Below are positions 5,851-52,730 of a DNA stretch of 64,000 bases, in pieces. The position numbers and the translations under genes are program-made. The stretch lies in the NCBI GenBank assembly GCA_018816245.1, contig JAHIVW010000003.1, forward strand, positions 321,453 to 385,452, in the 5' to 3' direction. The stretch's first letter is position 1, and every line of letters begins with the position of its first letter. The notes beneath the pieces were generated by a model. The model was not told where the DNA came from and did not search any database. It worked only from the letters and a program-made list of their open reading frames with translations. This DNA is from Nanobdellota archaeon (GTDB taxonomy: Archaea > Aenigmatarchaeota > Aenigmatarchaeia > QMZP01).

Positions 5851-7761
5851 CTACCGGAACTCGCCGCGTTTCCACTGTTCTGGCTTCTTTCCTTTCTGCA
5901 ACACTTCTCGGGAGAGCATGGTCCAGTCCTCCTCGGGGATCTGCAGGAGATCCTTCAGTGGCTCCCATGCCTTATCGCGAATGATTGCCCGCTGGCGCTC
6001 AATGTCACCTGCTGTCAATCCTTTCATCCCAAAGAATTCCATGGGGAGATTTTCTGGTTTCACGAGTTTCTCGGCATACTTTGCAACTTCCCGGAGGACA
6101 TCAACGGATTTCTGAAAAGGATCTTGTGCCCCGCCGCGTTCGAACATAAGGAAGGCGGTTTGTTTCTTTCCCAATCCTGTCTTGCAAAGATTGTAAATCA
6201 GTTCGTACAGTTCGATGTCGCCAATCTCAAGCGGGTTGTGTGGGTGAAGAGGATTTGGGTGGTTCGCATGCACGGAGATTACGATTTCACCGAAATCTGG
6301 TCGCGTCAGCACGTCCTTTCGGCTTTCGACGAGCACATCAACGCCTTGTGTCGCAATATGTTCATTATCCACTATCATCATCACATGGTTCGTGTTGAGA
6401 GTCTTTTGCAGCGTCTTGATAAGCGCATACATTTGTTTGGGACGCCAGATGAAGTACAAACCAGCGTACTGCGCTTCACGCGCATCGGGGTTTTCGAGAC
6501 CAATGATTAAATTCCGCGCGTTTTGTGTCAAGGTTTCGATTTCCTTTTTCTTTTCCGTGGCAGAGAGGTTCGTACTGTTCACTGCCTCGGGGATCTCCTT
6601 CTTAATAAGGACATGTTCAATCCAGTGAAAGGCGTCCCGCAAGTGCCCTTCAATAAATTTCGCACAAATGGCTGCATAAAAGAATTCCTTGAACTCTCGG
6701 TCGTTCGTGTCTTCTGCCTTCTGCCATGCATTCTCAAGCCACCGTTTATCACTATAATCGAGTTTGTATCGCTGCATCAATTCTGGGTATTCCTTAGTCA
6801 TGGCAACCCATTGCGGATCCTTGGTGTAGAAGAGGTAGTGTCCCATAATGTGGTACCCGTCCAACATCCCAACCGGTGCCCGGCGGAGCTCTTCGGATTC
6901 CCAGGGATCTCCCTCCATGAACTTCTCCCGAAGGAAGTTGTCAATCTCCTCCTTCTGAATTTCTGCATTCTTTTCAACCGTGGCCTTGCGAAGTCGCTCA
7001 AAAATATCCTCAACAATTCGATCGAGCTTTGCGTGCCGTGTTTTCCGGGGGATCCCGCGGATGATTGCCGCTTCGATGAAGTCTTCAACAAATTCTTCAT
7101 AGTTCAGATTCCTAGTTCCGCGAGGACTGGAAATTTGAATACCTTCGATGAGTTCTTTGTACGGCGCAAGTTCGCTGCGAAGGCGGTGGTCGGTCTCTTC
7201 CCGCTTCCACCGATCTTCCCGCAACTGATACCGACTTGAGATCACTGTTTGTTCCTCACGGTTGACAATATCTCCATAGTAGATATCGCCTTTCTTCCGA
7301 ATGAACCATTCCCGGAGATCTTCGTTCTCTTTGAGGATGGTTTTGATAAACCGGCCCATGTGATCACAAAAACTCATGGTAAGTTTTCGACCGGTATAGG
7401 TGACGAGTTCAAGCCAGATGTTCAGACATGCGTGAAAATCAATATACTTTGCGCCAAGGTAGACAGCAGACCGCAATGACTTGTATACTCGATCTTGTGC
7501 ATCACGCCATTCGCCTCGCTCGGGGATTTCAAACGGAACAGTCAAATCACCATGGAATGCGAGGGTAACACCCTGTTTTTTGGCAATATGTCGGATCTCG
7601 TAACCTTGGGTGTAGGGGACCTCGTGGGCAACGTCTGCTGCAAGTTCCATAGAAGAGGTTCCTCGGGTGAGGGTGTAGCCGAGCTTCCGCATGATCGTGG
7701 AGAGTTCTTCACTCCGAGCAGCGTAATAGATGCCGCTCGTCACACCGACTTTGAGTGCCAT
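5851..7761 (-). CDS. Xylose-isomerase-like (AP endonuclease 2 family) TIM-barrel protein split by a ~300-aa helical insertion
   Basis: The N-terminus (MALKVGVTSGIYY...AFHGDL...LGAKYIDFHAC) and C-terminus (MMIVDNEHIATQG...VHANHPNPLHPHNPLEIGDIELYELIY...FERGG) resemble the metal-binding strands of sugar-phosphate isomerase/Endo IV TIM barrels. The middle is charged and helical. Confidence 0.55.
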   Translation of the reverse strand: MALKVGVTSGIYYAARSEELSTIMRKLGYTLTRGTSSMELAADVAHEVPYTQGYEIRHIAKKQGVTLAFHGDLTVPFEIPERGEWRDAQDRVYKSLRSAVYLGAKYIDFHACLNIWLELVTYTGRKLTMSFCDHMGRFIKTILKENEDLREWFIRKKGDIYYGDIVNREEQTVISSRYQLREDRWKREETDHRLRSELAPYKELIEGIQISSPRGTRNLNYEEFVEDFIEAAIIRGIPRKTRHAKLDRIVEDIFERLRKATVEKNAEIQKEEIDNFLREKFMEGDPWESEELRRAPVGMLDGYHIMGHYLFYTKDPQWVAMTKEYPELMQRYKLDYSDKRWLENAWQKAEDTNDREFKEFFYAAICAKFIEGHLRDAFHWIEHVLIKKEIPEAVNSTNLSATEKKKEIETLTQNARNLIIGLENPDAREAQYAGLYFIWRPKQMYALIKTLQKTLNTNHVMMIVDNEHIATQGVDVLVESRKDVLTRPDFGEIVISVHANHPNPLHPHNPLEIGDIELYELIYNLCKTGLGKKQTAFLMFERGGAQDPFQKSVDVLREVAKYAEKLVKPENLPMEFFGMKGLTAGDIERQRAIIRDKAWEPLKDLLQIPEEDWTMLSREVLQKGKKPEQWKRGEFR

Positions 7762-7762
7762 A

Positions 7763-9367
7763 CTACTTGATCCTCATCCATCCTTCAAGCAGCTTGACCA
7801 CATCACTGTAAATCGGTCCCATCTCACGAAAATACATCTTCGTCATCCGCTCGTAATAGATGGACTCATAGGGACCTCGTCGCACAAATCGGTAAAAGAT
7901 GAATTCAAAACCAGTTTTGATCGCACGACCGATCCTTCTGTATGGTTTCAGTTTCGCGCTTATCCGTTTCCGACGTCCCGGAACCTCTGGCTCAAACTCT
8001 TTTTCAATATTTTCGAGGACGTTCTCCTCGCTCCTGCGGGAACCAATGATCTCTTCAATATATTTGTCAAAGGCTTTTTCGCGTGCCTTGAGCTCGATGA
8101 GGAAAACCAAAAGAATGTTCTGGGAGATGATATACGTATCAAAAGGAATGAACATGAGGTTATCTGTCTCAAACCCTTCTGGCGGCGGAGCCTTGACGAG
8201 GCTGAGAAGAATGTGCATGTCAAAGAAGACGTAGTACAGGGCTGATGGATCCATCATTGGGAAGTACTGAGAATAATTGGGATCTGTCGCGTTTTCGAGA
8301 ATTGTTTTCACGTCCTCGTTCGTTATCTCCACGTTGTAATGTTCCTCAATTCTTTTTTGCCACTCCTTCACAACGTCGTCATAAGGATGAATGACCCACT
8401 TCGCGCTGCCTTTTGATACTTCAGCATAGGCCTCTGCTTTCCGTCGTTCCGGGACAGTAACCGCCCGCCAGCACCAGAGCCGTACGGCACTGAGTGCTTG
8501 TGATTGTCCCCAGCCCGGGGTGATGTTCGGTTCCGTTAACCACTCGCCAGCATTGTCTTCCTGTTTTTCACGGATCATTTTAAAGCGGGCGATGTACGGC
8601 TTCAGCCACGTTCGGTAGGCATCGATTGATTGGCGCCGGGAACGAAGTAGGGTATCAATGCGAGAGTAGCGTTCCTTAAGGTTGGGGAGAAAGAGCCGCA
8701 CCCACTCTCGGTAGAGCTCGTTCTTTGTTTTCAGGACCGTTGCCTCGGCTTGCGTGACATCGAGTTCCTTCCGGATGGTGTCGATATTGTCCCACCCACT
8801 CTTCATCCGGATGAAATCAGTGATAATGGTCGGCCAGCGCCGGACCATGGTAATCATGGAGTAGTTTTCCCCGGTAAATGCGTCAACCCGGTCGACGAAG
8901 ACGTTCCGAAGGACGTGTTCATCGCCGGTGTGTTTTGCGGTCTTGAAGTAATCGAGCATCTCCCGGTAGCGACGGGCATCATGTGCCAGGAGCTCGTAAT
9001 CAGCGACTGCCTGCGCTGCTGACTGGAGACCCTGTTTGATTGCTCCTTCGAGCTTCTGTTTCTGCGTAACGGTGATATTATAGTAATCTGCATAGGTGGG
9101 GGTGACCTCAAGCCACTCATCCACCTTTTTGACCGTGAATTTCATTTTCGGAAGTTTGTTGATGAGGGCGTGGTAAATCCCGTACGCGCTCCCGCGGAGA
9201 CCAGTATAGTCAAGGGTCGTTGTCATTTCTTTGGGTGCACCGATCACATAGTTTCCCACATGCCTGTAGCTCGCCTGCTGCTTCGAAATAAGTTCATCGA
9301 CAACCAATTTTTCTGTCGGTGGTTTCATGTCTGGCTTCTGAGCGAGCTGCTGAGGGTTGCGATCCAT
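7763..9367 (-). CDS. Large hypothetical protein (534 aa)
   Basis: Uninterrupted ORF separated by 1 nt from the downstream TIM-barrel gene. No motif recognised. Confidence 0.6.
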   Translation of the reverse strand: MDRNPQQLAQKPDMKPPTEKLVVDELISKQQASYRHVGNYVIGAPKEMTTTLDYTGLRGSAYGIYHALINKLPKMKFTVKKVDEWLEVTPTYADYYNITVTQKQKLEGAIKQGLQSAAQAVADYELLAHDARRYREMLDYFKTAKHTGDEHVLRNVFVDRVDAFTGENYSMITMVRRWPTIITDFIRMKSGWDNIDTIRKELDVTQAEATVLKTKNELYREWVRLFLPNLKERYSRIDTLLRSRRQSIDAYRTWLKPYIARFKMIREKQEDNAGEWLTEPNITPGWGQSQALSAVRLWCWRAVTVPERRKAEAYAEVSKGSAKWVIHPYDDVVKEWQKRIEEHYNVEITNEDVKTILENATDPNYSQYFPMMDPSALYYVFFDMHILLSLVKAPPPEGFETDNLMFIPFDTYIISQNILLVFLIELKAREKAFDKYIEEIIGSRRSEENVLENIEKEFEPEVPGRRKRISAKLKPYRRIGRAIKTGFEFIFYRFVRRGPYESIYYERMTKMYFREMGPIYSDVVKLLEGWMRIK

Positions 9368-20423: not shown

Positions 20424-20451
20424 GTGTCCTGGTGTGACAAGAGTCACAGTT

Positions 20452-21723
20452 ATGTGCTACGCTATCCCTGGGAGGGTCGTTTCCATCAAGGGTCAGATTG
20501 CTGTTGTTGATTATTTTGGTGAACAGCGGACTGTCTTGAATGACAACGATGATATTCAGCCTGGGGATTATGTCTATGCACAGGGCGGTATTCTCATTAA
20601 CAAGATTGCGGAAAAGGACGCCCGTGAGATCTTGGGGTTCTGGAAGGAGAAATTTTTTGAGCTGAAAAAAATTGACGCCCAGTATTCGAAACTCCATACA
20701 TCAGGAGAGGGAGAACTTCTCCGAATCTTGCAGAGGGTGAACGTGAAACAGAAATTGAACAATGAGGAATTCATTTATCTCTTGAATCTACAGACAAAGG
20801 AAGAACAAAGCCTTCTTTTTGAAACCGCAAACGTTGTGAGACAAAAAGAGCATGACAACGCGTGTTGTGTTCACGGAATCATCGAGTTTTCAAATTATTG
20901 CCGATGTGACTGTTTCTACTGTGGCCTCAGGAAGTCAACGTCCCAAAAGCGGTACCGGATGACACCCGAGGAAATAATCTCAGCAGCGACATACGCCGTC
21001 AACGAGCTTGGTTTCAAGGCGCTTGTCCTCCAATCTGGAGAAGATGAATGGTATGATGAGGAAAAGCTCGTGACTCTTGTCAAGGAAATCAGAAAACTGA
21101 ATGTCCTTATTTTTCTGAGCATCGGAGAACGAAGCAAAGCATTGTACAAGAAGCTCTACGAGACCGGAGCACGGGCCGTTCTCTTACGATTTGAAACATC
21201 GAACAAGGAAATTTTCCAGAACTTGAGACCTGGAACGAATCTTGAGCAGCGCTTGGATTTGATCCGCTACGCGAAGGAACTTGGCTACATTGTTGCGACA
21301 GGATTCCTGATCGGACTCCCCGGAGAAACAGAAGAAGACATTCTCAACAACATTATGCTGACGAAGTCGCTCGGTGCTGATATGTATTCATTTGGACCGC
21401 TGATCCCTGCAGCAGGAACACCGTTAGAAAAGGAACCTCTTGGAGAAAAAAGCGCAGTGTTGAAAACAATAGCCGTAACACGGTTGCTTGACAGAAAAGC
21501 CAAGATCTTGGTGACAACAGCACTCGAAACGCTTGGGGATAATGCAAAGAAAGAGGGTTTGCTTGCCGGAGCCAATTCGTTGATGATCAATGTTACCCCG
21601 CCAACATACAGGGATTTATATATCATCTATCCAAAACATGGGAAAGAGGTCAAGAAAGCAATTCAAGAAACCATTGACCTGTTGTATTCCTTGGGGAGAG
21701 CACCAACGGATTTGGGGTTGTGA
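20452..21723 (+). CDS. HypC-like domain fused to HydE-like radical SAM enzyme
   Basis: The N-terminus MCYAIPGRVVSIKGQIAVVDYFGEQRTV...PGDYVYAQGGILINKIAEKDAREIL matches the HypC/HupF family. The radical SAM core has NYCRCDCFYCGLRKS (CX3CX2C with the HydE-like CGLR context). Confidence 0.75.
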   Translation: MCYAIPGRVVSIKGQIAVVDYFGEQRTVLNDNDDIQPGDYVYAQGGILINKIAEKDAREILGFWKEKFFELKKIDAQYSKLHTSGEGELLRILQRVNVKQKLNNEEFIYLLNLQTKEEQSLLFETANVVRQKEHDNACCVHGIIEFSNYCRCDCFYCGLRKSTSQKRYRMTPEEIISAATYAVNELGFKALVLQSGEDEWYDEEKLVTLVKEIRKLNVLIFLSIGERSKALYKKLYETGARAVLLRFETSNKEIFQNLRPGTNLEQRLDLIRYAKELGYIVATGFLIGLPGETEEDILNNIMLTKSLGADMYSFGPLIPAAGTPLEKEPLGEKSAVLKTIAVTRLLDRKAKILVTTALETLGDNAKKEGLLAGANSLMINVTPPTYRDLYIIYPKHGKEVKKAIQETIDLLYSLGRAPTDLGL

Positions 21724-21724
21724 C

Positions 21725-23104
21725 ATGCCAATTATCAAGGACATTGTCAATGAAGAGCTGTTACACCGGACTCTTGAGAAGACGAAGAATCCAACAGAAG
21801 AACAGATTATCGGAATTTTGAGGAAAGCACGGAAAAAACAAGGGCTAACATTGGAGGAGGTTGGGGCACTCTTAAATGCGACTGATCCAGCATTGACTCA
21901 GCAGATGTTTTCAACTGCAGGAAAAATTAAACGGGATATTTATGGGGAACGGCTTGTTCTTTTCGCCCCATTGTATGTTTCGAGTTTTTGTGTGAATGAC
22001 TGTGCCTATTGTGGATTTCGTGCACGAAATACCGCTGAGCGGAAGAAACTGTCACTCGAAGAAGTTCGGGAACAGGTCAGAATCCTTGAGGATATGGGAC
22101 ATAAACGGTTGCTGTTGGAGTTTGGTGAACATCCAACCGAAACACCAATTGACTATATTGTTGAAGTGATCAGGACGATCTATGATACCAAATCGGGGAA
22201 AGGGGAGATCAGACGGGTGAACGTGAACATCGCTGCAACCACGGTCGAAGCGTACCAGAAGCTCAAGGCAGTTGGTATTGGGACCTACCAACTATTTCAA
22301 GAAACGTACCACCGGGAGACGTATCAGAAGTTGCATCAGGGGTTGAAGGCAGACTATGAGCGACAGTTGTTTGCCCATGACCGGGCCTTTGCAGCAGGGA
22401 TTGATGACATCGGACTCGGGGTCTTATTTGGGTTGTACGATTATCGGTTTGAGGTATTGGCTCTGATATCCCACGCACAGTATCTTGACAGGACCTACGG
22501 TGTCGGTCCACATACCTTCTCGGTCCCTCGCTGGCAGCCGGCTGATGCTGTTGCTTGGGAGGAACCACCGGCTCCGGTTTCTGAAAATGAACTTCTCAAT
22601 ATCATCGCCATCTTACGGATGGCGGTCCCGTATACAGGCATGATCATTTCGACACGGGAACGACCTGAGATCCGGGAAAAGGCATTTGAGATCGGGATTT
22701 CGCAAACCTCTGCAGCCTCGCGAACAGCTCCAGGAGGATACGGAAAATCAGAGAAGCTTGCTCAATTTTCTTTGGCAGATCACCGAACGGTTGATGATGT
22801 TCTGAAGGGGATTCTGAAACAGGGATTGCTCCCGAGCTTTTGTACTGCCTGTTATCGCAAGGGACGAACAGGAGCAACGTTCATGGATCTTGCCAAGCCA
22901 GGTAATATTCACAATCTTTGTCGGCCGAACGCTCTCTTGACATTCAAGGAATATCTTGAAGATTATGCGTCGCCCGAAGTCAAGGAACGCGGTCTGTTGG
23001 TGATTGAGAACTATCTAGCACAAATTCCTGATGCAGCAACGAAACGGGAAACACGGGCCCGTCTCGACCGGATTGAACAAGGGGAACGGGATTTGTACTT
23101 TTAG
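21725..23104 (+). CDS. hydG: HydG-like radical SAM enzyme (ThiH/HydG family with C-terminal cluster motif)
   Basis: The N-terminal motif is CVNDCAYCGF. The C-terminal segment is SFCTACYRKGRTGATFMDLAKPGNIHNLC, an exact CX2CX22C. It starts 1 nt after the HydE-like stop. Confidence 0.8.
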   Translation: MPIIKDIVNEELLHRTLEKTKNPTEEQIIGILRKARKKQGLTLEEVGALLNATDPALTQQMFSTAGKIKRDIYGERLVLFAPLYVSSFCVNDCAYCGFRARNTAERKKLSLEEVREQVRILEDMGHKRLLLEFGEHPTETPIDYIVEVIRTIYDTKSGKGEIRRVNVNIAATTVEAYQKLKAVGIGTYQLFQETYHRETYQKLHQGLKADYERQLFAHDRAFAAGIDDIGLGVLFGLYDYRFEVLALISHAQYLDRTYGVGPHTFSVPRWQPADAVAWEEPPAPVSENELLNIIAILRMAVPYTGMIISTRERPEIREKAFEIGISQTSAASRTAPGGYGKSEKLAQFSLADHRTVDDVLKGILKQGLLPSFCTACYRKGRTGATFMDLAKPGNIHNLCRPNALLTFKEYLEDYASPEVKERGLLVIENYLAQIPDAATKRETRARLDRIEQGERDLYF

Positions 23105-23118
23105 TCTGAGATAATGTG

Positions 23119-23511
23119 TTACGCAACGACGAGCTTTGCTCGCTGAATTTGTTTCGTCTGCTGAAATCGGTGAAGCATCTCGTGAACGTCTTTCGCCTCT
23201 CCCTTCACGACAACGATCTCAAAACAACCTTGTTTGGTGTTCGTATGGAGTTGTGTTTCCACAAGCGGTTGAAATTCATGGATGATCTGGATCACCTCGG
23301 CAGCGGCGCGGTGGTGATGAACCAAGAGAAGGACACCAGTGATTTTTCCGGCAACCATGTGCTCTTTTCGTTCCTCCTGAAGATTCCGGAGTGCCAGACG
23401 AATGAGATCGCTTCTTCCTCTTGTTTTGAAGTGCTGCTGGAGTGCTATCGCTAAGGCGCTCGTTTCAGGATCCAGCGAGATGCTGATGATTTCGTGGGAC
23501 ATATGGCTCAT
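23119..23511 (-). CDS. nikR: NikR-like ribbon-helix-helix, metal-responsive regulator
   Basis: The RHH N-terminus is ISISLDPETSALAIALQ. The C-terminal domain carries GVLLLVHHHRAAAEVIQIIHEF. Start is taken at MSHMSHEI. Confidence 0.7.
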   Translation of the reverse strand: MSHMSHEIISISLDPETSALAIALQQHFKTRGRSDLIRLALRNLQEERKEHMVAGKITGVLLLVHHHRAAAEVIQIIHEFQPLVETQLHTNTKQGCFEIVVVKGEAKDVHEMLHRFQQTKQIQRAKLVVA

Positions 23512-23537
23512 TAATAGTATCAGGAAAGGATAGAAGT

Positions 23538-23566
23538 TATTAATTATATTCATGTATTTATTAATA
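23538..23566. promoter_or_regulatory. Inverted repeat TATTAAT-N15-ATTAATA in the nikR/ZIP divergent intergenic region (candidate operator)
   Basis: The half-sites at 23538-23544 and 23560-23566 are exact reverse complements. They lie between the divergent nikR and ZIP starts. Confidence 0.4.
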
Positions 23567-23585: not shown

Positions 23586-24335
23586 ATGGTAGACCTCACA
23601 CTTATCCTCGGGGCGGTCATTCTTGTCAGTTTAGTTTCACTTCTGGGTGCTTTGACGCTCCTCAAGACGCGCTTGGTGAATACGCTGCTCTTTGTCTTTG
23701 CAAGCTTTGCTGCAGGGACCCTTCTTGGAAGTGCATTCTTGGGGCTCCTCCCTGAAGCAATTGAGGAAGCCACAAGTGTGGAGTTTGCCCTCTTCTATGC
23801 ACTTGCCGGGGTTGTCCTCTTCTTTATCATCGAACGTGGGTTGCATTGGCATCATTACCACGCCAAGAAAGAGTCACATCCCTTTACGTACTTGAACCTC
23901 ATTGGTGACGGGATCCACAACTTCGTTGACGGTGTTTTGATTACCGCCTCTTTCTTTTTGTCTGTTCCCCTTGGGTTTGCCACAACGCTTGCGATCATTG
24001 TTCACGAGATTCCCCAGGAATTGTCTGACTTCGGTCTCTTAATCTATGGTGGGTGGTCCGCGAAGCGAGCACTGGTGGCCAACTTCATCACCGCGCTCAC
24101 TGCTGTTGTCGGGGCAATTGTGGGGTATCTTTTCTTGAGTGTGATCGAGACCGCCATTGTCCCGCTTGTCAGTATTGCTGCAGGTGGGTTTCTCTATATT
24201 GCCTCAGCGGACCTTGTTCCTGAAATCCATAAAGAGCGGGACTGGAAAAAAATTATTGTCCAGATTCTGGTGTTCTTGCTTGGGATTGCGATCATCTGGG
24301 CTGTCGGTGTCTTTGGACCAAGCCATAGTCATTGA
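23586..24335 (+). CDS. zupT: ZIP-family divalent metal transporter (ZupT-like)
   Basis: HEIPQELSDFGLLI signature within about 8 TM helices. Confidence 0.9.
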   Translation: MVDLTLILGAVILVSLVSLLGALTLLKTRLVNTLLFVFASFAAGTLLGSAFLGLLPEAIEEATSVEFALFYALAGVVLFFIIERGLHWHHYHAKKESHPFTYLNLIGDGIHNFVDGVLITASFFLSVPLGFATTLAIIVHEIPQELSDFGLLIYGGWSAKRALVANFITALTAVVGAIVGYLFLSVIETAIVPLVSIAAGGFLYIASADLVPEIHKERDWKKIIVQILVFLLGIAIIWAVGVFGPSHSH

Positions 24336-36169: not shown

Positions 36170-38146
36170 TCAGTCACTCCTTCGTTTTATAAGCTCCTCT
36201 GGTTTCACGATCGCGTATGTGGGATCACAGGAACCATATGACTGTGTGTTGCCGGTGAGGATTTTTGTAATTTGTTCGATCGGTGCTGTTGCCTTGTTCT
36301 TGGTGATTATTGTTGCTGCAGCTGCGAGCACGGTATCCGGTGTTTTTGTTTGGAGGCTATCAGGGTCAAAGGCGTCATCCTCTGTGGTAACCTTCCCTAC
36401 TGGTTTGATGAAGTGGTTGTATTGTTCCTTAATCTTCCGCATTTGTTCGGAACTGATGTTCCGATGATACATATCATCCTTCAATTGTTTTCCTGTTTTC
36501 CGTTCCCAGACATCCCGAGGGATGCTGAACTTCTCCTGTACCTTGTCCCGGTACAATCCTGGGATCACGTTGAACGTGCAGAATGGGAGCACGCGACCGT
36601 CAGGAACAGCGTAGTGAATGTCGCATTTGTGGACACGGTCAATGTCCCAGTTGTACGGGTCCTGGAAATGCATCATCCCGAGGAACAATGATTTGAGATG
36701 GAACGCTGCAAGCCCGTGGTAGTTTCCCCCGCCAACGGCACCACTGAGGAGCTTGACAATGTTGAGATTCTGCGGCTTCTTTTTCGAGTCAACGAACTTG
36801 TTCAGGTTCAGGAGCAGCTTGGCGAGCACAACCTTTTTCTTGATTTTCCTGTGCTTGCTGCCGGTAAGTTCCCGTGTCAACTCGCCAAGGTAGTTGAAAA
36901 AGCCTTCCACATCGACAAACGATGGGAGAGGAATGAGTTTGCCGTGCTCATCCTTGAATACGTATGTTGCCATGCCACAGGAGAAGTGCACGGATAACCG
37001 ATACTTTGGTTCCTGTTTGAGCGCTTCGATGAAATCAGTGATCTGTTTTGCACAGGGAACAGGGAACCAGGCGTCCTTGCTGATTTCTCCTGCAGTCTGC
37101 GCTTGGATCCGGTTGATTGAACCAGGAATCGTGATCCGCTGCTTTCGGCGCTGGCGTTCCGGCATGCGGCCAACGAGGGACACGGGCTGGAAGTTCACCG
37201 CGCGCACGGCGTGGATGTTGCCGGATGCGAAGCGGATGATGTCACCCAGTTCGTGATCATTCACGCCGCCGATCACGGTCGGGACCAGCACAACCCCGAT
37301 CCCCGCCTTGTGGCAGTTCTCGATTGCTTGTTGTGCTTCCCAATAATTCTTCGGATTTGTCGACGGGGCCATGCCGTCGAAGGACATGTACAGGTTGGAC
37401 ACGCCGGCCTCGCGGAGGCGCAGGGGAAGGTTCGGATCGCGCGACAGGTTGATCCCGTTGGTGTTCAACTGTATATGATCGTACCCAAGTTCTTTGGCGA
37501 GCTTGATGATGTCAATCAAGTCTTCACGAAGGGTTGGTTCGCCGCCCGTGAACTGAACGGAGTTGGCGCCGACGGGCTTTTCATCCCGCATGCGCGAGAG
37601 CATAAGTTTCATCTGGTCCATGGTCGGTTCATAGATCGGGTCGCCTTCTTTGCTGTAAAAGAAACAGTACCAGCAGGACAGATCGCAGCGATTGGTTACC
37701 ACAATATTACCGAGGCCGGTATGACTTTCATGATTTGCACACAGGCCGCAGTCAGTCGGACAGTTGATGTCACCTTTTTCTATATGCGGGTTCTGGATTT
37801 CGATGCCGGGATCCTGGAATCGCTCTGCTTTTTGGTACAATCCGTAATCTGACCAGTAGACTTCCTTGAAGGGGCCGTGCTTCGGGCAGGACTTCTTGAT
37901 CCAGACCTTGTTGTGCTTCAGATAGGTGACGGCATCGATTTTCATGGTGTTCCACTGTTTGTCCTCGACGCAGCCAGGACAGAGGGACTGGTGGAACTTG
38001 AGCAAGCGGACATCCCCTTCATCTGCGAGGAGAGCGACGAGCTGCTGCTTCCGCTCAGCGGTAAAGTCGTTCACATACGGGGAGGTCGGGACAGCCAAGA
38101 AGTCCTCCCGGGTATGCTGGGTTGCTTGGGGATAAGCGTTCACCAT
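36170..38146 (-). CDS. Radical SAM protein, tetraether lipid synthase-like (Tes / GDGT-MAS, MJ0619-type)
   Basis: The N-terminus has a rubredoxin-like CPGC...CPKHG. The radical SAM motif is NRCDLSCWYCFF, with VQFTGGEPTL. The protein is long (658 aa). The family call rests on recalled motifs only. Confidence 0.55.
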   Translation of the reverse strand: MVNAYPQATQHTREDFLAVPTSPYVNDFTAERKQQLVALLADEGDVRLLKFHQSLCPGCVEDKQWNTMKIDAVTYLKHNKVWIKKSCPKHGPFKEVYWSDYGLYQKAERFQDPGIEIQNPHIEKGDINCPTDCGLCANHESHTGLGNIVVTNRCDLSCWYCFFYSKEGDPIYEPTMDQMKLMLSRMRDEKPVGANSVQFTGGEPTLREDLIDIIKLAKELGYDHIQLNTNGINLSRDPNLPLRLREAGVSNLYMSFDGMAPSTNPKNYWEAQQAIENCHKAGIGVVLVPTVIGGVNDHELGDIIRFASGNIHAVRAVNFQPVSLVGRMPERQRRKQRITIPGSINRIQAQTAGEISKDAWFPVPCAKQITDFIEALKQEPKYRLSVHFSCGMATYVFKDEHGKLIPLPSFVDVEGFFNYLGELTRELTGSKHRKIKKKVVLAKLLLNLNKFVDSKKKPQNLNIVKLLSGAVGGGNYHGLAAFHLKSLFLGMMHFQDPYNWDIDRVHKCDIHYAVPDGRVLPFCTFNVIPGLYRDKVQEKFSIPRDVWERKTGKQLKDDMYHRNISSEQMRKIKEQYNHFIKPVGKVTTEDDAFDPDSLQTKTPDTVLAAAATIITKNKATAPIEQITKILTGNTQSYGSCDPTYAIVKPEELIKRRSD

Positions 38147-38233: not shown

Positions 38234-39085
38234 TTATACATAGTGTTTGAGCATCATTGAAAGATCAATGTTCGAGATATCCCGCGTCGCCGGGACACCC
38301 TTCTCATAGACCGAAACTTCACCATCATAGGTCGGCCGGTCCTCCTTGAAGAACAACCCAAGTGGCAGTTTGTCAGTTCGCCGAGCGAGCTTCATGGCCT
38401 CGTCCCAGTTGGCAGGATCGTTTCCTTGAAGGACTTGCGTATTCTCCTGATACCATTGAGGCGTGTTCGCCCGGTTATAGTTGACGCATGGTTGCAACAC
38501 ATCGACAAACGCGTAGCCTTTGTGGTTGAGAGCATCAACAAACAATTCCTTGAGCTGGGAGACGTTCAGCGCATAGCCGCGGGCAACATAACTGGCACCC
38601 ATAGTCAAGGCGAGCGCCAGCGGATTCACCGGGGTTTCCAGCGCACCATGTGGTGACGATGGTGATTTGAACCCTTTCTTACTCGTTGGGGAATACTGCC
38701 CTTTTGTCAGCCCGTATACCTGGTTGTCCTGCACGATGTGCACGATATCAAGATTGCGGCGCATGGTATGCATGAAGTGGTTGCCACCAATGCCGTACGT
38801 ATCACCATCGCCGGAGATGGCAATCACCGTCAAGGTCGGATTTGCCAGCTTGATGCCCATAGCAACCGGCAACCCGCGACCGTGCAACCCTTCGAAGCCG
38901 TACGTCTTGACGTAGTGCGGAATCTTTGAACCACAGCCGATTCCTGAAACAATAACAACATCCTTCGGATCAATAACGAGTTCTGCGAGCGCATTCTTCA
39001 ATGACGCGAGGATGGTGTGGTCACCGCACCCCGGACACCAGGTTGGTGTTTCCTGTGTTGTGAGATCAGCAAGAGAAATCGTCAT
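38234..39085 (-). CDS. 2-oxoacid:ferredoxin oxidoreductase beta subunit (TPP-binding)
   Basis: TWCPGCGDHTIL and GDGDTYGIGGNHF motifs. Confidence 0.92.
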   Translation of the reverse strand: MTISLADLTTQETPTWCPGCGDHTILASLKNALAELVIDPKDVVIVSGIGCGSKIPHYVKTYGFEGLHGRGLPVAMGIKLANPTLTVIAISGDGDTYGIGGNHFMHTMRRNLDIVHIVQDNQVYGLTKGQYSPTSKKGFKSPSSPHGALETPVNPLALALTMGASYVARGYALNVSQLKELFVDALNHKGYAFVDVLQPCVNYNRANTPQWYQENTQVLQGNDPANWDEAMKLARRTDKLPLGLFFKEDRPTYDGEVSVYEKGVPATRDISNIDLSMMLKHYV

Positions 39086-40896
39086 ACAATCATCTCCTTG
39101 ATCGCGGCAACAATGTCTTCAGGATCAAAGGGCCGACCGTCATACCGCAAGATCTTTTCTTTAATGGTAATTAGGCACTGTTCCCGGATCAGGGAACCGA
39201 GTTGACTGGTCATGTTACTTTCCACAAGGACCAGTTGTTTCGCCTTTTTCAAAATCCGGGAAACCGTCTCTGTAGGAAACGGGCTGAGATACATGAGCTG
39301 TAGGAAATTCGTTGCAACACCATCTGATTTCAGGAGCTTCATTGCCTCGAGGATCGGCCCTTTCGGTGATCCCCAGCTGACAAAAGTGATCGGCGCATCA
39401 GCCGGACCGATGAGTTTCGGTTGCGGCAGGGTCTTGGCGAGCTGCTCAATCTTGCGGAACCGCTTCTGGTGCATGGCGACCCGGACTGCTGGCTCTTCAC
39501 ACTCGTTTCCTTCCTCGTCGTGTTCGTAACTTGAAGCAACAAACATACAACCGGGAATGCCGGGCCGAGCCCGCGGTGACACTGCGTCCTTGGTCAATGC
39601 GTACCGCTTGTAGTTCTGTTGTGCTGTTGTTACCATTTTCCCGCGGTGCACAGAAAGCTGGTGTGGTAGGGGATCGACTGAACAATAACTTTCTGCAAGG
39701 TACTTGTCTGAAAGAAGAATCACCGGCAGCTGGTATTGATCCGCAAGGTTGAATGCCTCGAACCCGAGTGTGTAGTTCTCAGCGGCATCTCCGGGGGCGA
39801 CCACAACGCGCGGGAATTCGTCCGTTGACGCATGCAACACATACTGGAGATCACCTTGGCCAGAATGCGTTGCCATGCCTGATCCCGGGCCAGGACGCAT
39901 GACGTTTGCCACCACAAGCGGTGTTTCTGTTTGCGCTGCAAGACCGAGTCCTTCAACCATCAGCGCAAAACCGCCGCCACTTGTTGCGGTCATGGACCGC
40001 GCGCCCGCGTAGCTTGCACCGATCGCCGCATTGATCGCGGTAATCTCGTCTTCCGTATGCTTGACCACAATATTGTAGTCTTTCTCATTCGCTGCAACCG
40101 TGTGCAGGATGGATGAGGCAGGTGTCATCGGGTATGCGGCAAAAAACGTGAGGCCTGCTTTGATTGCGCCAGCGGTCATGGCTTCGTTGCCAGACATGAA
40201 CAGTCTCTGCGGGCCAGGTTGTTTCTTCAATGAAACAGGAAATGGTTTTCCTTTGACCAGATCGTATCCTGCTTGGGCGGCCTTAATATTCTTCTGAACA
40301 ACCGCATCGCCTTTCTTCTCAAAGGTTTCTGTGAGGATGGCGATAAATGATGAGAGCGCAACACCGAGCAGGCCAATCGTTGCCCCCATGGCAACCACGT
40401 TTCGCATGATGGGGCCGCCGCATGCGCTTGCGGTCTTGAGGAGGGGAAGCGGGAAGAGTGCAATGTCGCTCCGTTTGAGACTCTCGACGCTCACCTTGAG
40501 GGTGTCTCCGTCGTAAATGATCCCGCCGCCAGGGATGATCTTGCTCGCGTGCTTGTCAACTGCTTCCTGATTCAGGGCAACGAGGAGATCAACCCATTTT
40601 GTGTGGGATGCAAGCGGCTTGTCTGAGACACGGATATCAAGATGATTGTGCCCGCCGCGGATCAGGCTGGGATATTCTGCTGACGCAAAGACGTATAAGC
40701 CGTCCCGCATGCACAGCTTGGCGAACATGCGGCCAGCGTTCAGGATCCCGTCGCCTGCTGCTCCCGCAATCTTCCAGGAAAGGTTGTTGATCCGTTTCCC
40801 TCCCGTGATTGAGCCGTGGGCAGGTGAAGTAGTAGGGATTGTTGCAACCGCGTTTGCGCGTGGAATCATAGCCTCATCCTTCGTGACATACTTCAA
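39082..40896 (-). CDS. 2-oxoacid:ferredoxin oxidoreductase alpha subunit (fused gamma-alpha type)
   Basis: 604 aa. The N-terminus is gamma-like (GAGDGILNAG) and an alpha domain follows. There is a 4-nt overlap with the beta gene. Confidence 0.9.
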   Translation of the reverse strand: MKYVTKDEAMIPRANAVATIPTTSPAHGSITGGKRINNLSWKIAGAAGDGILNAGRMFAKLCMRDGLYVFASAEYPSLIRGGHNHLDIRVSDKPLASHTKWVDLLVALNQEAVDKHASKIIPGGGIIYDGDTLKVSVESLKRSDIALFPLPLLKTASACGGPIMRNVVAMGATIGLLGVALSSFIAILTETFEKKGDAVVQKNIKAAQAGYDLVKGKPFPVSLKKQPGPQRLFMSGNEAMTAGAIKAGLTFFAAYPMTPASSILHTVAANEKDYNIVVKHTEDEITAINAAIGASYAGARSMTATSGGGFALMVEGLGLAAQTETPLVVANVMRPGPGSGMATHSGQGDLQYVLHASTDEFPRVVVAPGDAAENYTLGFEAFNLADQYQLPVILLSDKYLAESYCSVDPLPHQLSVHRGKMVTTAQQNYKRYALTKDAVSPRARPGIPGCMFVASSYEHDEEGNECEEPAVRVAMHQKRFRKIEQLAKTLPQPKLIGPADAPITFVSWGSPKGPILEAMKLLKSDGVATNFLQLMYLSPFPTETVSRILKKAKQLVLVESNMTSQLGSLIREQCLITIKEKILRYDGRPFDPEDIVAAIKEMIV

Positions 40897-47921: not shown

Positions 47922-50900
47922 TCAAACAATTTCTTGAAACGCCTTCAGGATTTTATCATCATCAAGAGGTGTACTTAACCACTGTTCGTACGCTTTCTTG
48001 CAATTATCCGGGTTTCCGCTATCTTCCAAACAACAGACACCAAGATCTCCTGAAGTTGTGGAAATGGTTTTGCATGCAAGACCTTCTAATGAATTACCAC
48101 CAAGATCGTATTTCGTTACTTGATCACAGTCTGCATCAGCACCTAGGAGTGTTTTGTCACATCCTCCTGCACCAAGACGACAGCCACTCTTCGTCTGCTC
48201 TTTGTACGCTTCGCAATATCCTGGTTTGCCAAAGAGTGAACTCAAACCAGTTATCCCATTCGACGACGTCCCGTTCCCAAAGTCCCCGCAAATGTTGTTG
48301 TTGCACGTCTGCCCGAACGCCGCATACGGGCAGTCGTTCGTCGTTTCGCAGCAGGTCACCCCGCCGAACTCCACCTTCTCGTTCACGGTCTTGGTCTGCG
48401 CAAAGATGTAGTCCGCGTGCGCCCGGACCTGGAACGTCTGCGTCGGGATGTTCTTGTTTCCAAAGGTAAATCGATCCTGGAAGTAGCAGAAGATCGTTGT
48501 CATGCCCTGGGGAATGTTTTCCGGTTTCCATGTATAGGTGGTCGCTGTTGCGCCAGGCGTCGTGGCAAACTTGTTGTTCGTGCAGCTCTTGATTTCCCCA
48601 AGCGCGTTGGGAATGATCAACTGGATCTGCGCGCTCTCGATCTGGGAGCTTGTGGACGCCTGGTATTTCTGCACAGGAACGAGCGACAAACCAATGAACA
48701 GCGGGGTCTTCTCCCGGATCGGTTGTTCAAGGGTGTCGAGGTTCAACTGGACCGGCGCATTGGTGAACGTCGATGCTTTCTTCGTTTGTGTGACAAGTTT
48801 TCCGTCCGCAACCAGGCGATCCCACTCGCCCTGGCTGATGAGCTCCACATCAATGCTGGAGTCGATTTGATACGGATACGTAACCGTGATGTTGAACGGA
48901 ATGTAGAAATTCCGAAGATCTATGTTTGATGTGATTCTCTTGGCACCAATGCCGCCAGCAAGTTTGTTCGCAATTTCGTCGAGGATGTGTTTTGCGCCAA
49001 TCATCTCCGAACAGGAAAACCCATTACTCTGGAAGAATCCCTGGCGGATATCCAGCTTGGTCATGGTTTCAGGAGTTGTGCCGCTGGGCTGCTGGTACGA
49101 GCCAACGGCACCGCCAGGGAAGGGAACGTAAGGGTAATGGACAACCTGATAGCAGGGTTCATCCTTGCTTGTTTGTTGCTGATGATCAACGCCGTCTTTG
49201 TCAATGCATACTTCTTCTCGTTCGGTAGCGTTGAACCCGAACTGGCTGATAGGAACCGTGACCCGGGTGAAGTCGATCTTCCCTCCTGAATCGGAAAACT
49301 TCATGTTGCTCGTTAACGTGACGTTGACATTGCTCGTCTCGAACGCCCCGGAATTCTTCAGTTTGTACACGATCGAGAAAGGTTGGCCTGGAAAGATCGG
49401 CGTGACGTCTATTTTGCCATCAAACTCCACACCGAGCGCTCCTTTTAACCCGGTCGTGGGATCAGTCGCATACGTGCCGTTGAGGATTTGTTGTGTATAT
49501 CCAATGGGATTCGTCAGTAAGAAGACTGCTTGGCCTAACGTGTTGCCAAGTTGCATCATCACTTCTGCTAATGGTTCTGTTAATTCAGCCACGCCGTTGT
49601 GCACGGTGGGCCACCACTGTCCTAACAGTCCGCTGCCAATGTCCTGCGATCCTGGTCCGATACCATAGATGACCGTGGCAGCGCCAAGCATGATCAGCCC
49701 TGCCTCTGGCCGGGCTGCCCGCGATGAAAAGAGTCCTGCGATAAATGAGACAAACCAGAAGTAGAGGAACGTTGCCCGAAGCGTGCCGGTGAGTTCCCAT
49801 CCAGGGCCAAAGGTGAAGAGTGGTGACACAACATTCAGCGCTCCGGAACCCAGCAAAGCAATAAACATCAAACCCACGAAAAGAGCTTTGTCGAACATTG
49901 CGCCAAATTCGCCAGTCGCTGCCTCTTCACTGCTCTCTGTTCCTTTCTTTGATCGCTCCACCGGCGGAACAGCGAAGAAGGCGAGCGCAAGGATTGCAAG
50001 AACATTCGAGTTGAAAATTGTCCCAAACAGGTAGAACGGAATCAAGTAACATCCGAGGATGAGAAATCTCATCAGTGATTCGATTCGTTCGCCAGGAATA
50101 TCAGGATCGTACGCTGTCTTGAGTGAGAAATACCCACCAAGACAAACAATGAGGAAGGCGATGTTGAACGGTCCTCCGAGCGCGCGGAACCCGAAGGCGA
50201 ACAGGGTGATCGCGGAAATCTTGAAAAAACTTCGCATCCAGCCGAACGTGGCATGGGATCGCCCGTCGCTTAACGGATTCATCATCTGGTACCAGATGTT
50301 TTTTCCTTTGTAGAGGTTGCCCTCTTGCGGCGCAGGGGTGACAAAATAGAAGCCAATTGCGAAAAATGCAAACATGAACCAGATCTGGCCGAGCAGGGCC
50401 GACATGGTGATCCCAAGCGCAGCAGCAGCAATTAAATAGAATCCTTTTTGGATGACGCTTTCCCCGTACCGGCGAACGGTCCAGGGTTTTTTGTACGATT
50501 CTTTCAGTTCTTTCAACTTGTCATCAATTTCTTCTTCGTATTGTTTGCTATCACGTTTGAATTGCTCTTCGATTTCCTTTCGCCGTTCATCTAAATCCTT
50601 TTTCGCATCTTGAAAATAATCTTGGGTAATATGACCTCCATTCAATTGATTCTGTAATTTGGTAAGTAAGCCATCAACGTTACGCAGTTCTCGATCACGA
50701 CGAACGCCTGGAAGATCATTCCATTTTTCATGGAGGTTTCTCGTTCTCTCAAGTAAAAGGTTCCGCTGTTGTTGGATATCAGCACGAAGATCCGGATCTG
50801 TTGTTCTTCGAAAACGGTTACCCAGCTCAATACCATGGGTTCGCAGCTGGTCGAGTTCTCTCTTTATTCGCTGCCGCGCAACAAGATGATCACGCTCTGC

Positions 50901-51518
50901 CTTGAGGTCTTTTCTTCGTTGCTTATACTGTTCCCGGACCGGGGCACCGGAGAAGATTCCCGCTGCCTTTCCCTTTTTTTGCTGCTTCTTCACTTGCGCA
51001 GGACTTAATTTTCTTCCTGCATCTCGAAACCCGCGTCGAGTTGCATCCCAATGAGTTGGACAACGCCTATTCAAACAAAAAAACGTCTCTTTTCCTTCAG
51101 TTGAAACGAGCGTGTGCAAGCGTTCCAAACCGCACCACGGACACACAATATCAGAAACCACGCTACTGATTTCGCCACGAAGGATGCGCACTTCGTGTCG
51201 TTTCTTTTCACGCTCCTTTCCTTCAGCACCATAAATGTCCTCGTAAATACCCTGAATTGCTTCCCGGAGTTCTTTCCCAGAAAGATGCCTTGTTTCTTCC
51301 CGAATGCGGCGATCAACTTGTCTGTTTTTTTCTTGCCGCTCAAAAATGGTCCATGCTGATTCTGGTCCCGGACCCGCAACACCAGGCGGCCAGTGGAAAT
51401 CTCCTTCAGGACAGACCACTTCAACCATCCGCTGGCCGGTTCCCGCGACCTTGGATTCGTAGATTTTGAGCTTGCCATGAGCTGAATTAACAGGACATTT
51501 GAGTTCTTTTTCAGCCAA
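47922..51518 (-). CDS. Giant membrane protein (1198 aa): cytoplasmic zinc ribbons plus coiled coil, polytopic core, large extracellular domain with Cys-rich tail
   Basis: The N-terminus has CP...CP and CPWC...C....CP motifs, followed by a long K/R/E-rich helical region. About ten hydrophobic segments lie in the middle. The C-terminal ~560 aa are beta-rich and end in a tail with about 13 Cys. Confidence 0.7.
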   Translation of the reverse strand: MAEKELKCPVNSAHGKLKIYESKVAGTGQRMVEVVCPEGDFHWPPGVAGPGPESAWTIFERQEKNRQVDRRIREETRHLSGKELREAIQGIYEDIYGAEGKEREKKRHEVRILRGEISSVVSDIVCPWCGLERLHTLVSTEGKETFFCLNRRCPTHWDATRRGFRDAGRKLSPAQVKKQQKKGKAAGIFSGAPVREQYKQRRKDLKAERDHLVARQRIKRELDQLRTHGIELGNRFRRTTDPDLRADIQQQRNLLLERTRNLHEKWNDLPGVRRDRELRNVDGLLTKLQNQLNGGHITQDYFQDAKKDLDERRKEIEEQFKRDSKQYEEEIDDKLKELKESYKKPWTVRRYGESVIQKGFYLIAAAALGITMSALLGQIWFMFAFFAIGFYFVTPAPQEGNLYKGKNIWYQMMNPLSDGRSHATFGWMRSFFKISAITLFAFGFRALGGPFNIAFLIVCLGGYFSLKTAYDPDIPGERIESLMRFLILGCYLIPFYLFGTIFNSNVLAILALAFFAVPPVERSKKGTESSEEAATGEFGAMFDKALFVGLMFIALLGSGALNVVSPLFTFGPGWELTGTLRATFLYFWFVSFIAGLFSSRAARPEAGLIMLGAATVIYGIGPGSQDIGSGLLGQWWPTVHNGVAELTEPLAEVMMQLGNTLGQAVFLLTNPIGYTQQILNGTYATDPTTGLKGALGVEFDGKIDVTPIFPGQPFSIVYKLKNSGAFETSNVNVTLTSNMKFSDSGGKIDFTRVTVPISQFGFNATEREEVCIDKDGVDHQQQTSKDEPCYQVVHYPYVPFPGGAVGSYQQPSGTTPETMTKLDIRQGFFQSNGFSCSEMIGAKHILDEIANKLAGGIGAKRITSNIDLRNFYIPFNITVTYPYQIDSSIDVELISQGEWDRLVADGKLVTQTKKASTFTNAPVQLNLDTLEQPIREKTPLFIGLSLVPVQKYQASTSSQIESAQIQLIIPNALGEIKSCTNNKFATTPGATATTYTWKPENIPQGMTTIFCYFQDRFTFGNKNIPTQTFQVRAHADYIFAQTKTVNEKVEFGGVTCCETTNDCPYAAFGQTCNNNICGDFGNGTSSNGITGLSSLFGKPGYCEAYKEQTKSGCRLGAGGCDKTLLGADADCDQVTKYDLGGNSLEGLACKTISTTSGDLGVCCLEDSGNPDNCKKAYEQWLSTPLDDDKILKAFQEIV

Positions 51519-51559
51519 GCAAACCGCCTCAGAGAATACTTGTCGTCAAGAGGTATAAA

Positions 51560-52678
51560 TCAGGCCTTCTGGAGGAGCACGGACGCGTCCCCAATTTCCC
51601 AGTTTCCGGTCCCCGAGAAGATCAGGGTGTTTTTCCCTTCCTGCACGTCAGCAGCGCCAAACGTCACGGTATTCTGCCCCTTCACCACGGACGACAGCTG
51701 GAATTCCTTGTCGTTCAGCGTGACCGATAGGGCACCGTTCTTGAGAATCTCATCAACATTGTAGACCAGCACCACATTAGCGTGCCCGTCCGCAACCTGC
51801 TTGGCCTGTTCCTGCGTCAAATCGAACGTCTTGGCCTTTGACAGCTCGCTCGTCAGGAGGAAGATGTTCAGCTGTCCGCCGCCAATCGTGGTCACGCCGG
51901 TCGAGGAAAAGGTGAGCGTGTTCGTCCCCACCTTGAGCGAAACATCAGTCAGCTCAAACGGGATCTCTTCCACTCCAGTTGGTGCACCAGAGAAGAGCTG
52001 CTGGCCATTCACATTGATTGCCAGGAGCCCGCTGCCTGACCCGAAGAATGACAACTCGCCCCGGTCAAAGGTGGCAAGCTCTGAGGAAAAGAGTTCGAAC
52101 GGGAAGATCCGGTCAGGACCATAATCAAGCTCCACTTTCACGTTCTTCAGCACGTAGACGGTCTGCGCCCAGAAGTACAGGCCAGGACCATCTGTGGTGA
52201 ATTCGAGGGTGTTCACGTTCTTGACCACGTCCTTGTCCAGAGTGAGCGACAGTGGCCCGGGGTTCGGATAGCCTGAATACACGGTCACGCCGTTCCACAG
52301 CACGTTCAGTTTCCCGTAATTGTTCGTGTCAAAGACTGAGAACGTGACGCGCACGTTCCGGGTTGTGTCTTCAAAGGCCTTGGGAACGACAATACTCATT
52401 TCCTCTTTCCGTTCGCCACTCAGCCCCTTGGTGACTTCAAGTTGCAAGATGCTCTTCAAGGTTTCGAACTGGGATTCCCCGACTGTGAAGGTTCCCAGGG
52501 TGAGTGACTTCGACGGGAGATTCTGGGAAAAGCCAACTGACCCGACGGTGAACGAGGCGATTGTGGTTTCCTCAACATCCTGGCCCGTGGTGGTCACGAA
52601 CACCGAGGCAACAGCAAAGACAACGAGAATGAGAATCGCGGCTGCGAGGATGTACATGAAGTCATCTGTCCCGCGCAT
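51560..52678 (-). CDS. N-terminally anchored secreted protein with three lectin/LamG-like repeats (372 aa)
   Basis: The start at the ATG at 52678 (MRGTDDFMYILAAAILILVVFAV) leaves a TATA-containing gap to the divergent pelota gene. Three segments follow the pattern L.V..NG...(15-25 aa)...G.NTL.F...G. Confidence 0.6.
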   Translation of the reverse strand: MRGTDDFMYILAAAILILVVFAVASVFVTTTGQDVEETTIASFTVGSVGFSQNLPSKSLTLGTFTVGESQFETLKSILQLEVTKGLSGERKEEMSIVVPKAFEDTTRNVRVTFSVFDTNNYGKLNVLWNGVTVYSGYPNPGPLSLTLDKDVVKNVNTLEFTTDGPGLYFWAQTVYVLKNVKVELDYGPDRIFPFELFSSELATFDRGELSFFGSGSGLLAINVNGQQLFSGAPTGVEEIPFELTDVSLKVGTNTLTFSSTGVTTIGGGQLNIFLLTSELSKAKTFDLTQEQAKQVADGHANVVLVYNVDEILKNGALSVTLNDKEFQLSSVVKGQNTVTFGAADVQEGKNTLIFSGTGNWEIGDASVLLQKA

Positions 52679-52730
52679 ACTATTCTTTTTTGTGAAGAAT
52701 CCATATAAAGCGGCACGGTGAAGCCTTCTC

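Follow-up and report, generated by a model that had tools for sequence, protein, structure and literature searches.

What does a gene do that joins a chaperone of [NiFe]-hydrogenase maturation to an enzyme of [FeFe]-hydrogenase maturation? Such a gene lies in the 64,000-nucleotide stretch of DNA from a Nanobdellota archaeon analysed here (the window; contig JAHIVW010000003.1 of assembly GCA_018816245.1, positions 321,453 to 385,452). Its product begins as a HypC domain and continues as a HydE-type radical S-adenosylmethionine (SAM) enzyme. To our knowledge, HydE and its partner HydG have hitherto been regarded as specific to [FeFe] hydrogenases. A sequence-only reading of the window had singled out this gene and suggested that it could mark a separate way of assembling a metallocofactor. 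Our comparisons of sequences and genomes indicate that the fusion is probably a neofunctionalised HydE which, together with HydG, replaces HypC, HypD, HypE and HypF and supplies the Fe-CO/CN unit to a group 3b [NiFe] hydrogenase.

The gene is intact and both of its parts are recognisable. The open reading frame (ORF; 20452-21723, forward strand) has 423 codons, begins MCYAIPG and is free of stops and frame breaks; in particular, we found no frameshift at the junction, the sign of two separate genes that the sequence-only reading had warned of. Residues 1-64 match HupF_HypC (PF01455) over the complete profile (positions 1-65 of 65; 55.2 bits against a gathering score of 28.5), which bears out the identification of the N-terminal ~70 residues as HypC with its Cys2, and residues 1-66 align with HypC of T. 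kodakarensis (PDB 2z1c; 48-53 bits). Pfam places Radical_SAM at residues 144-299 and BATS at residues 317-390. The top NCBIfam match is HydE (TIGR03956; 258.8 bits, marginally above the cut-off of 254.6), and with the CX3CX2C motif in place the remainder is a HydE-type radical SAM protein, as had been proposed. The sister families PylB (155 bits against a cut-off of 348), BioB (103 against 225) and HmdB (94 against 321) all fall far short. Residues 101-418 align with residues 24-344 of T. maritima HydE (TmHydE) at 230 bits and ~38% identity, PylB reaching 109 bits, and the family scores and PDB matches together rule out a PylB, BioB or HmdB identity for this part. An AlphaFold2 model of the whole fusion, built on 46 relatives, has a predicted local distance difference test score (pLDDT) of 92.1 and a predicted template modelling score of 0.92. 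The barrel of this model and TmHydE (7o1p) superpose with a template modelling score of 0.95 and a root-mean-square deviation of 1.4 Å. Between the two parts, DSSP assigns a helix to residues 54-78 of the model (pLDDT 85-93), in which W64, F68, L71 and D75 are invariant or nearly so among aligned fusions. Since domain, family and structure matches agree, the earlier description of the gene was correct in coordinates and content.

The same architecture turned up well beyond this archaeon. We sought relatives in a collection of 5.8 billion proteins, and all of the top 120 (57-67% identity, ~425-430 amino acids) share its three Pfam domains and their order. In a scan of one genome per species, relatives were encoded in 337 genomes. 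The archaeal carriers belong to Nanoarchaeota/Woesearchaeota, Aenigmatarchaeota, Micrarchaeota and Altiarchaeota; the bacterial ones include Patescibacteria, Omnitrophota, gammaproteobacterial metagenome-assembled genomes (MAGs), Margulisiibacteriota, Elusimicrobiota, Planctomycetota including Scalindua, Lentisphaeria, Brevinematales and Clostridia. The names that the relatives bear in public annotation are 'HydE', 'biotin synthase' or 'HypC family chaperone'. When the radical SAM part was placed in a tree (quick search, LG+G4, rooted on HydG; its deep order is uncertain), all 15 fusion representatives formed one clade with a Shimodaira-Hasegawa-like approximate likelihood-ratio test (SH-aLRT) support of 100, nested among ordinary HydE. 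The fusion therefore looks, from its sequences, like a single derived invention inside the HydE family. Two 50%-identity cluster representatives go one step further as HypC-HydE-HydG triple fusions, P0124 (906 amino acids) and P0135 (881 amino acids), the former encoded directly after a 3b operon (L108:8001-10721).

Two further observations concern the family around the fusion. Four proteins (P0148, P0164, P0170 and P0208) are HydE with an N-terminal 'putative Se/S carrier' domain (PF11823) where HypC would be, and they form their own clade among the HydE sequences (SH-aLRT 98); it seems that HydE has acquired small carrier domains by fusion on repeated occasions. Beside an unfused member of the fusion clade (L107), the upstream ORF of 89 amino acids was considered as a stand-alone HypC and proved to be a winged-helix protein.

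Which hydrogenase could the fusion serve in the archaeon itself? The window's genome comprises 886 kb in six contigs and is 88% complete, and we ran profile searches over all contigs for HydA, HydF and the Hyp proteins, part of the survey that the sequence-only reading had named among its checks. They returned no [FeFe]-hydrogenase catalytic domain (HydA) and no HydF, for which the best match (26 bits against a cut-off of 326) is at the level of any GTPase. They also gave no HypD candidate, the motifs GPGCPVC and GFETT being absent from all six frames, no HypE, and no HypF, where the N-terminal, middle and C-terminal parts of the profile yielded partial matches of at most 40 bits against a cut-off of 466. 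The sole HypC domain in the genome is the one in the fusion. Save for that domain on HydE, the whole canonical iron-ligand branch (HypC, HypD, HypE and HypF) is missing.

A [NiFe] hydrogenase is nonetheless encoded on the same contig, ~100 kb from the fusion (C4:444727-448480), by four genes that are translationally coupled and arranged as in sulfhydrogenases (beta-gamma-small-large). In the large subunit we found RICGICSCAH and DPCFSCSSH, the latter with seven further residues, FLDVTWV, as an extension; the enzyme is called group 3b from its Cys motifs and operon order rather than by a formal subgroup classifier. Genes for HypA and a maturation endopeptidase adjoin the operon, so the functions of nickel insertion and processing are present. 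A tblastn search of all contigs with a bacterial HypB (from L045), which is a weak test, found nothing, and HypA may insert nickel unaided or together with a divergent GTPase. With HydA, HydF, HypD, HypE and HypF all lacking in these searches, HydG adjacent to the fusion, and a [NiFe] operon accompanied by HypA and a protease, the genomic evidence points to the distinct metallocofactor assembly route that had been suggested, and to a group 3b [NiFe], not an [FeFe], hydrogenase as its client.

We applied the same profile searches to 50 other fusion-carrying species genomes, picked for their longer contigs. The [NiFe] large-subunit family passed its cut-off in 48 and HydG in 46, HydA did so in ten, and HypD and HypE in one each. 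Two complete chromosomes among the 50, G028 (OY970229.1) and G038 (OY969425.1), follow the same pattern. The single HypD- and HypE-positive carrier (G050, the 2.7-Mb genome of locus L094) has several hydrogenases, and its HypD and HypE lie side by side (C4:162967-169512); ~3 kb away is another [NiFe] large subunit, with a much higher score. This genome apparently holds the two maturation systems together, each close to a hydrogenase of its own, and is an exception of the expected kind. Among 14 named control genomes, the four with HypD, HypC, HypE and HypF above cut-off are precisely those with a [NiFe] large subunit; set against the 48 [NiFe]-positive carriers, HypD is thus found in 4/4 controls versus 1/48 carriers (Fisher probability ~2e-5, a hand calculation). 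The HydA search was sensitive to minimal DPANN hydrogenases of 358 amino acids (G024). A few carriers with ~1.9-Mb genomes combine both enzyme types closely: on contig C16 of G035 (L073) and contig C59 of G042, two HydA, HydG, the fusion and a 3b [NiFe] operon fall within ~20 kb. Carriers of this type also hold a second, lower-scoring HydG, and HydG there might serve both types of enzyme.

Gene order places the fusion with the same partners. Across 80 loci, many of them cut by contig ends, HydG adjoins the fusion in 44, in most cases within a few bases on its downstream side. In 26 of the 80, a large subunit of 3b type with a score above 200 bits lies within 10 kb of the fusion; the chance expectation, roughly estimated, is a few percent. 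The commonest such order, all on one strand, is beta-gamma-small-large-(protease)-(x)-fusion. A gammaproteobacterial locus (L013) reads beta-gamma-small-large-HycI-membrane protein-fusion; on an archaeal contig (L012), HypA-fusion-HydG stands next to a convergent 3b operon; and on a bacterial contig of 589 kb (L108), beta-gamma-small-large-HycI-cNMP-binding protein (cNMP, cyclic nucleoside monophosphate) is followed on the same strand by the 906-residue HypC-HydE-HydG protein. Other recurrent neighbours are the protease, HypA, HypB, a His-rich DsbD_2-like membrane protein, Rex and a rubrerythrin-like protein, and the families recurring near the fusion include no candidate substitute for HypD, HypE or HypF. 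The DsbD_2-like protein (239 amino acids, L013:9281-10000 and nine other loci) has the His-rich loop HTHIHMHADGTKHIHDHGHCYEHAHMH, sits between protease and fusion in the gammaproteobacterial operons, and is likely a nickel or cobalt transporter.

HydG is a tyrosine lyase that produces CO and CN on a dangler iron. In the window it matches TIGR03955 with 559 bits (cut-off 312), and its alignment to T. italicus HydG (4wcx, 554 bits) covers the full length. It keeps GVGPHT, whose His is the dangler-iron ligand, and the C-terminal auxiliary-cluster motif C-x2-C-x22-C (CTACYR...22...C).

In the canonical pathway, HydE joins two Fe(I) units to form the [2Fe] precursor destined for HydF. We compared 21 fusions with TmHydE and 88 stand-alone HydE representatives in one alignment, taking the residue roles of TmHydE from PMC10114646 and PMC11826987. 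The cluster cysteines C150, C154 and C157 are invariant across the 21 fusion and 88 canonical sequences. Quantum mechanics/molecular mechanics calculations have Met224 and Met291 of TmHydE each holding one Fe(I)(CO)2(CN)(SH) unit (PMC11826987), and their equivalents, M311 and M378, are present in 21/21 fusions. TmHydE R159, E161, R180, T268-A270 and Y306 are retained as fusion R246, E248, R267, T355-A357 and Y393, as are V105 and L157 (TmHydE numbering). The product side has fared differently. In TmHydE, R54, T134 and R155 contact CN ligands of the Fe(I) dimer product (PMC11826987), and the lower 'S3' site of HydE has a conserved Thr/Arg and the product exit towards HydF (PMC10114646). Three of the four TmHydE residues that touch the dimer's CN ligands are replaced in all or nearly all fusions. 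R54 has become His (His141) in 21/21, where 80/88 canonical HydE have Arg; T134 is Phe (Phe221) in 19/21, against Thr in 77/88; and R155 is Gly or Ala (position 242) in 21/21, against Arg in 77/88. In addition, H52 is replaced by Cys (Cys139) in 21/21 fusions and V289 by Ser in 19/21, and the auxiliary-cluster cysteines of TmHydE are absent from the fusion sequence. This pattern of retention and replacement, read with the roles assigned in the two studies, indicates that the substrate half of the HydE part is conserved, and that the half which would stabilise and release the [2Fe] product has been remodelled, a Cys-x-His pair being new there.

The HypC half has likewise kept some features and lost others. 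MC(Y)AIPG at the N-terminus is invariant or nearly so, with Cys2 in at least 90% of 46 aligned fusions, and YAQGG (residues 42-46) is invariant. Cys2 of HypC is an iron ligand, and the conserved His of canonical HypC is thought to assist iron binding. That His (H45 in T. kodakarensis, H51 in E. coli) aligns to Gln44, which is invariant in window-type fusions, and the fusion scores 41.5 bits with the NCBIfam HypC model TIGR00074, under its cut-off of 48. To judge from the alignment, Gln44 in place of His fits a carrier that has stopped working with HypD. Given this exchange and the remodelled product site of HydE, neither half is a plain equivalog of its own family.

Gene content, co-occurrence and anti-co-occurrence, synteny, the triple fusion and the residue pattern, all directly observed, suggest how the parts might work together, although our confidence in the mechanistic details is lower than in the [NiFe] assignment. 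HydG, as its full conservation suggests, would cleave tyrosine to give a cysteine-bound Fe(CO)x(CN)y synthon on the dangler iron. The HydE barrel would bind this synthon and remove the cysteine backbone through 5'-deoxyadenosyl radical chemistry as in the [FeFe] pathway, a step suggested by the retained cluster, substrate-side residues and equivalents of Met224 and Met291. The remodelled lower cavity (Cys139, His141, Phe221 and Gly/Ala242) may then keep a single iron unit and pass it on to Cys2 in the HypC domain tethered to the barrel; by analogy with HypC, that domain would dock on the apo large subunit and insert the iron. Finally, HypA would add nickel and the endopeptidase would trim the C-terminal extension, both genes being present. 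In its fullest form the proposal is a second route to the [NiFe] site that is independent of HypD, HypE and HypF: HydG makes CO and both CN from tyrosine, a HydE paralogue whose lower cavity is lined by Cys and His releases mononuclear Fe-CO/CN onto the fused HypC, this loads the large subunit, and the whole has spread by horizontal transfer via small-genome archaea and bacteria (DPANN, Patescibacteria, Omnitrophota, Margulisiibacteriota and others). We consider that complete version evenly poised between right and wrong.

Several points weigh against assigning the fusion to [NiFe] maturation. The basis is comparative genomics throughout, and most carrier genomes are incomplete MAGs. HydA occurs in 10/50 carriers, so a role in [FeFe] maturation is possible there; 4/50 carriers are without detectable HydG; and the HypC domain, by its sequence, is without the conserved His thought to help iron binding. 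The main gap is one of stoichiometry: complex-B, the synthon of HydG, has 2 CO and 1 CN, which mismatches the 1 CO and 2 CN of the [NiFe] site. A product with 1 CO and 2 CN is conceivable from HydG chemistry, because each tyrosine cleaved by HydG gives one CO and one CN, and complex-A likewise carries a single copy of both (PMC10114646). The different CO:CN ratio also gives room to the view that HydG and the fusion supply a part only, such as CO, and that cyanide or a scaffold comes from an unrecognised non-Hyp system; the unannotated conserved neighbours, ORFs of 120 and 194 amino acids at L012 and the cNMP-binding protein at L108, could be counted in its favour. However, HydG makes CN too (PMC10114646), the recurrent neighbours are limited to hydrogenase subunits, protease, HypA/HypB, the His-rich membrane protein, Rex and the rubrerythrin-like protein, and the triple fusion suggests a self-contained unit, so we regard supply of a part only as unlikely. 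The pair might instead still mature an [FeFe]-type or unrecognised H-cluster-like enzyme, with HypC as an iron or chaperone module replacing HydF. Apart from the present case, [FeFe] maturation is the only setting in which HydE and HydG are known, ten carriers have HydA, one of them (G035) with HydA, HydG, the fusion and [NiFe] genes on one contig, and archaeal [FeFe] hydrogenases are mostly found without known maturases (PMC11216029). Yet HydA is missing from the window's genome and from 40/50 carriers, although a DPANN HydA as small as that of G024 is detectable; [NiFe] 3b operons enclose the fusion; it is these same carriers that lack HypD and HypE (each in 49/50); and the residues that hold the HydE dimer are lost. 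An [FeFe] role is hard to hold for the window's genome and the 40 carriers without HydA and possible as an extra role in the ten with both enzymes; as the explanation of the fusion we think it quite improbable.

The remaining doubts concern the data themselves. HypD, HypE and HypF could be present and missed, the fusion then being an accessory HypC paralogue, and the 88% completeness of the window's genome and the fragmented MAGs that make up most carriers lend this some footing. But HypD and HypE are each absent from 49/50 carriers, the two complete chromosomes included, and those of G050 sit beside a different [NiFe] large subunit. Because [NiFe] subunits (48/50) and HydG (46/50) were recovered from the same assemblies, incompleteness fails to account for the 49 absences, and there is very little to recommend the idea. 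For a frameshift, a mis-assembly or a decaying gene we found no supporting point, and the continuous ORF, the architecture shared by 120/120 best relatives, the occurrence in 337 species genomes, the conserved linker and the confident model rule out a two-gene artefact and leave explanations of this sort a negligible chance.

As a maturase of [NiFe] hydrogenase, the fusion with HydG would form a hybrid of the Hyp and Hyd systems. With HydE (TmHydE; TIGR03956; PDB 3cix, 7o1o and 7o1p) it shares the barrel fold, CX3CX2C, the substrate residues and the genetic coupling to HydG. It differs in the N-terminal HypC, the replaced R54, T134 and R155, the new invariant Cys139, the missing auxiliary-cluster cysteines, its co-occurrence with [NiFe] rather than [FeFe] hydrogenase, and, for the window's genome, the absence of HydF. 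HypC, HybG and HupF (PF01455; 2z1c; E. coli 2ot2) are matched by the full Pfam hit, the Met-Cys start, the barrel and helix, and by genomes and operons that hold [NiFe] hydrogenase, HypA and protease. Unlike these free proteins of ~80 amino acids, the domain is fused to an enzyme, has an invariant Gln for the His, scores below the TIGR00074 cut-off and lacks the obligate partner HypD (absent from the window's genome and present in 1/50 carriers). The presumed end point would be that of the HypCDEF pathway, Fe-CO/CN passing from a HypC-type Cys2 to the large subunit before nickel insertion by HypA and proteolysis. In contrast to that pathway there is no HypD scaffold and no carbamoyl-phosphate route to cyanide through HypE and HypF; the ligands would come from tyrosine via HydG, and two genes, or one in the triple fusion, would replace four. 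The HydG-HydE-HydF pathway contributes the likeness of a canonical HydG with a HydE-type enzyme, and differs in having HydF, HydA and an unremodelled HydE product site; HypC presumably takes the place of HydF as carrier.

The sequence-only reading knew of no fusion joining the two pathways. Our search of the full-text literature, mostly outside subscription journals, likewise found no description of a HypC-HydE fusion or of HydG and HydE acting on [NiFe] hydrogenases; an earlier description elsewhere is possible. HypCDEF has counted as universal and well conserved, the machinery by which [NiFe] hydrogenases obtain their Fe(CN)2CO unit (for example PMC9431212). A 2024 survey of archaeal hydrogenases and maturases filtered HydE and HydG by the same TIGRFAM models, discussed them only for [FeFe] enzymes and makes no mention of a HypC-HydE fusion (PMC11216029).

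The features of the fusion and its immediate surroundings are collected in Table 1. The product of the nikR-like gene scores under the cut-offs of the NCBIfam NikR models. Together with the ZIP gene it may form a nickel-uptake unit, linked to the fusion system by association only, and a ZIP gene lies near the fusion in 1/80 related loci. Upstream, a Zn_ribbon_2 gene ends 28 bases before the ATG of the fusion, and a perfect palindrome, GTGACAAGAGTCAC (20434-20447), ends 4 bases 5' of it. The palindrome may be an operator or a small hairpin; an operator shared with other genes was rejected, as it occurs once in that form genome-wide.

Table 1. Position of the fusion gene, its parts and the genes downstream of it in the window.
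Feature	Coordinates	Strand	Description
HypC-HydE fusion gene	20452..21723	+	Single ORF, 423 amino acids, ATG start; HupF_HypC + Radical_SAM + BATS
HypC domain, residues 1-64	20452..20643	+	Met-Cys2, beta-barrel, then helix; Gln44 at the canonical His position
Linker helix, residues ~54-78	20611..20685	+	FWKEKFFELKK; conserved; connects HypC domain with barrel
Clade-specific Cys139-Val-His141	20866..20874	+	First barrel strand; His52-Ile-Arg54 in TmHydE
Radical SAM [4Fe-4S] motif CX3CX2C	20899..20922	+	C150/C154/C157; NYCRCDCFYCG
hydG	21725..23104	+	459 amino acids; starts one base after the fusion stop; TIGR03955
NikR-like nickel-responsive regulator	23119..23553	-	Ribbon-helix-helix (RHH) + NikR_C, 38.4 bits; convergent with hydG
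ZIP-family metal importer	23586..24335	+	PF02535, 142.6 bits; divergent from the NikR-like gene, 32-bp spacer

Elsewhere in the window are genes for MCM and for an ABCE1-like protein (Fer4 and two ABC domains), which mark the organism as an archaeon. Four large ORFs of 636, 534, 1198 and 490 amino acids on the reverse strand (5851-9367 and 47922-53032) have no Pfam match at E <= 1e-5. Also on the reverse strand (36170-38146 and 39082-40896) are a 658-residue radical SAM protein with an HMPTM-type N-terminal zinc ribbon and, nearby, a fused pyruvate:ferredoxin oxidoreductase subunit; the oxidoreductase may be the ferredoxin-reducing partner in a fermentative, H2-evolving metabolism.

The anaerobic source of CO in the Hyp pathway is a long-standing open point. 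If the fusion and HydG do build the [NiFe] site, tyrosine would be a defined CO source under anoxia and would answer where the CO ligand of these anaerobes originates. The two maturation systems would be linked both mechanistically and evolutionarily, and a HydE variant stopped by nature before dimerisation would be of use for the debated mechanism of HydE. A cassette of two genes, or of one, would become available for heterologous production of [NiFe] hydrogenases. For the organisms themselves, such a route would explain how many members of the Candidate Phyla Radiation (CPR) and DPANN that have group 3b hydrogenases without hyp genes can have an active enzyme.

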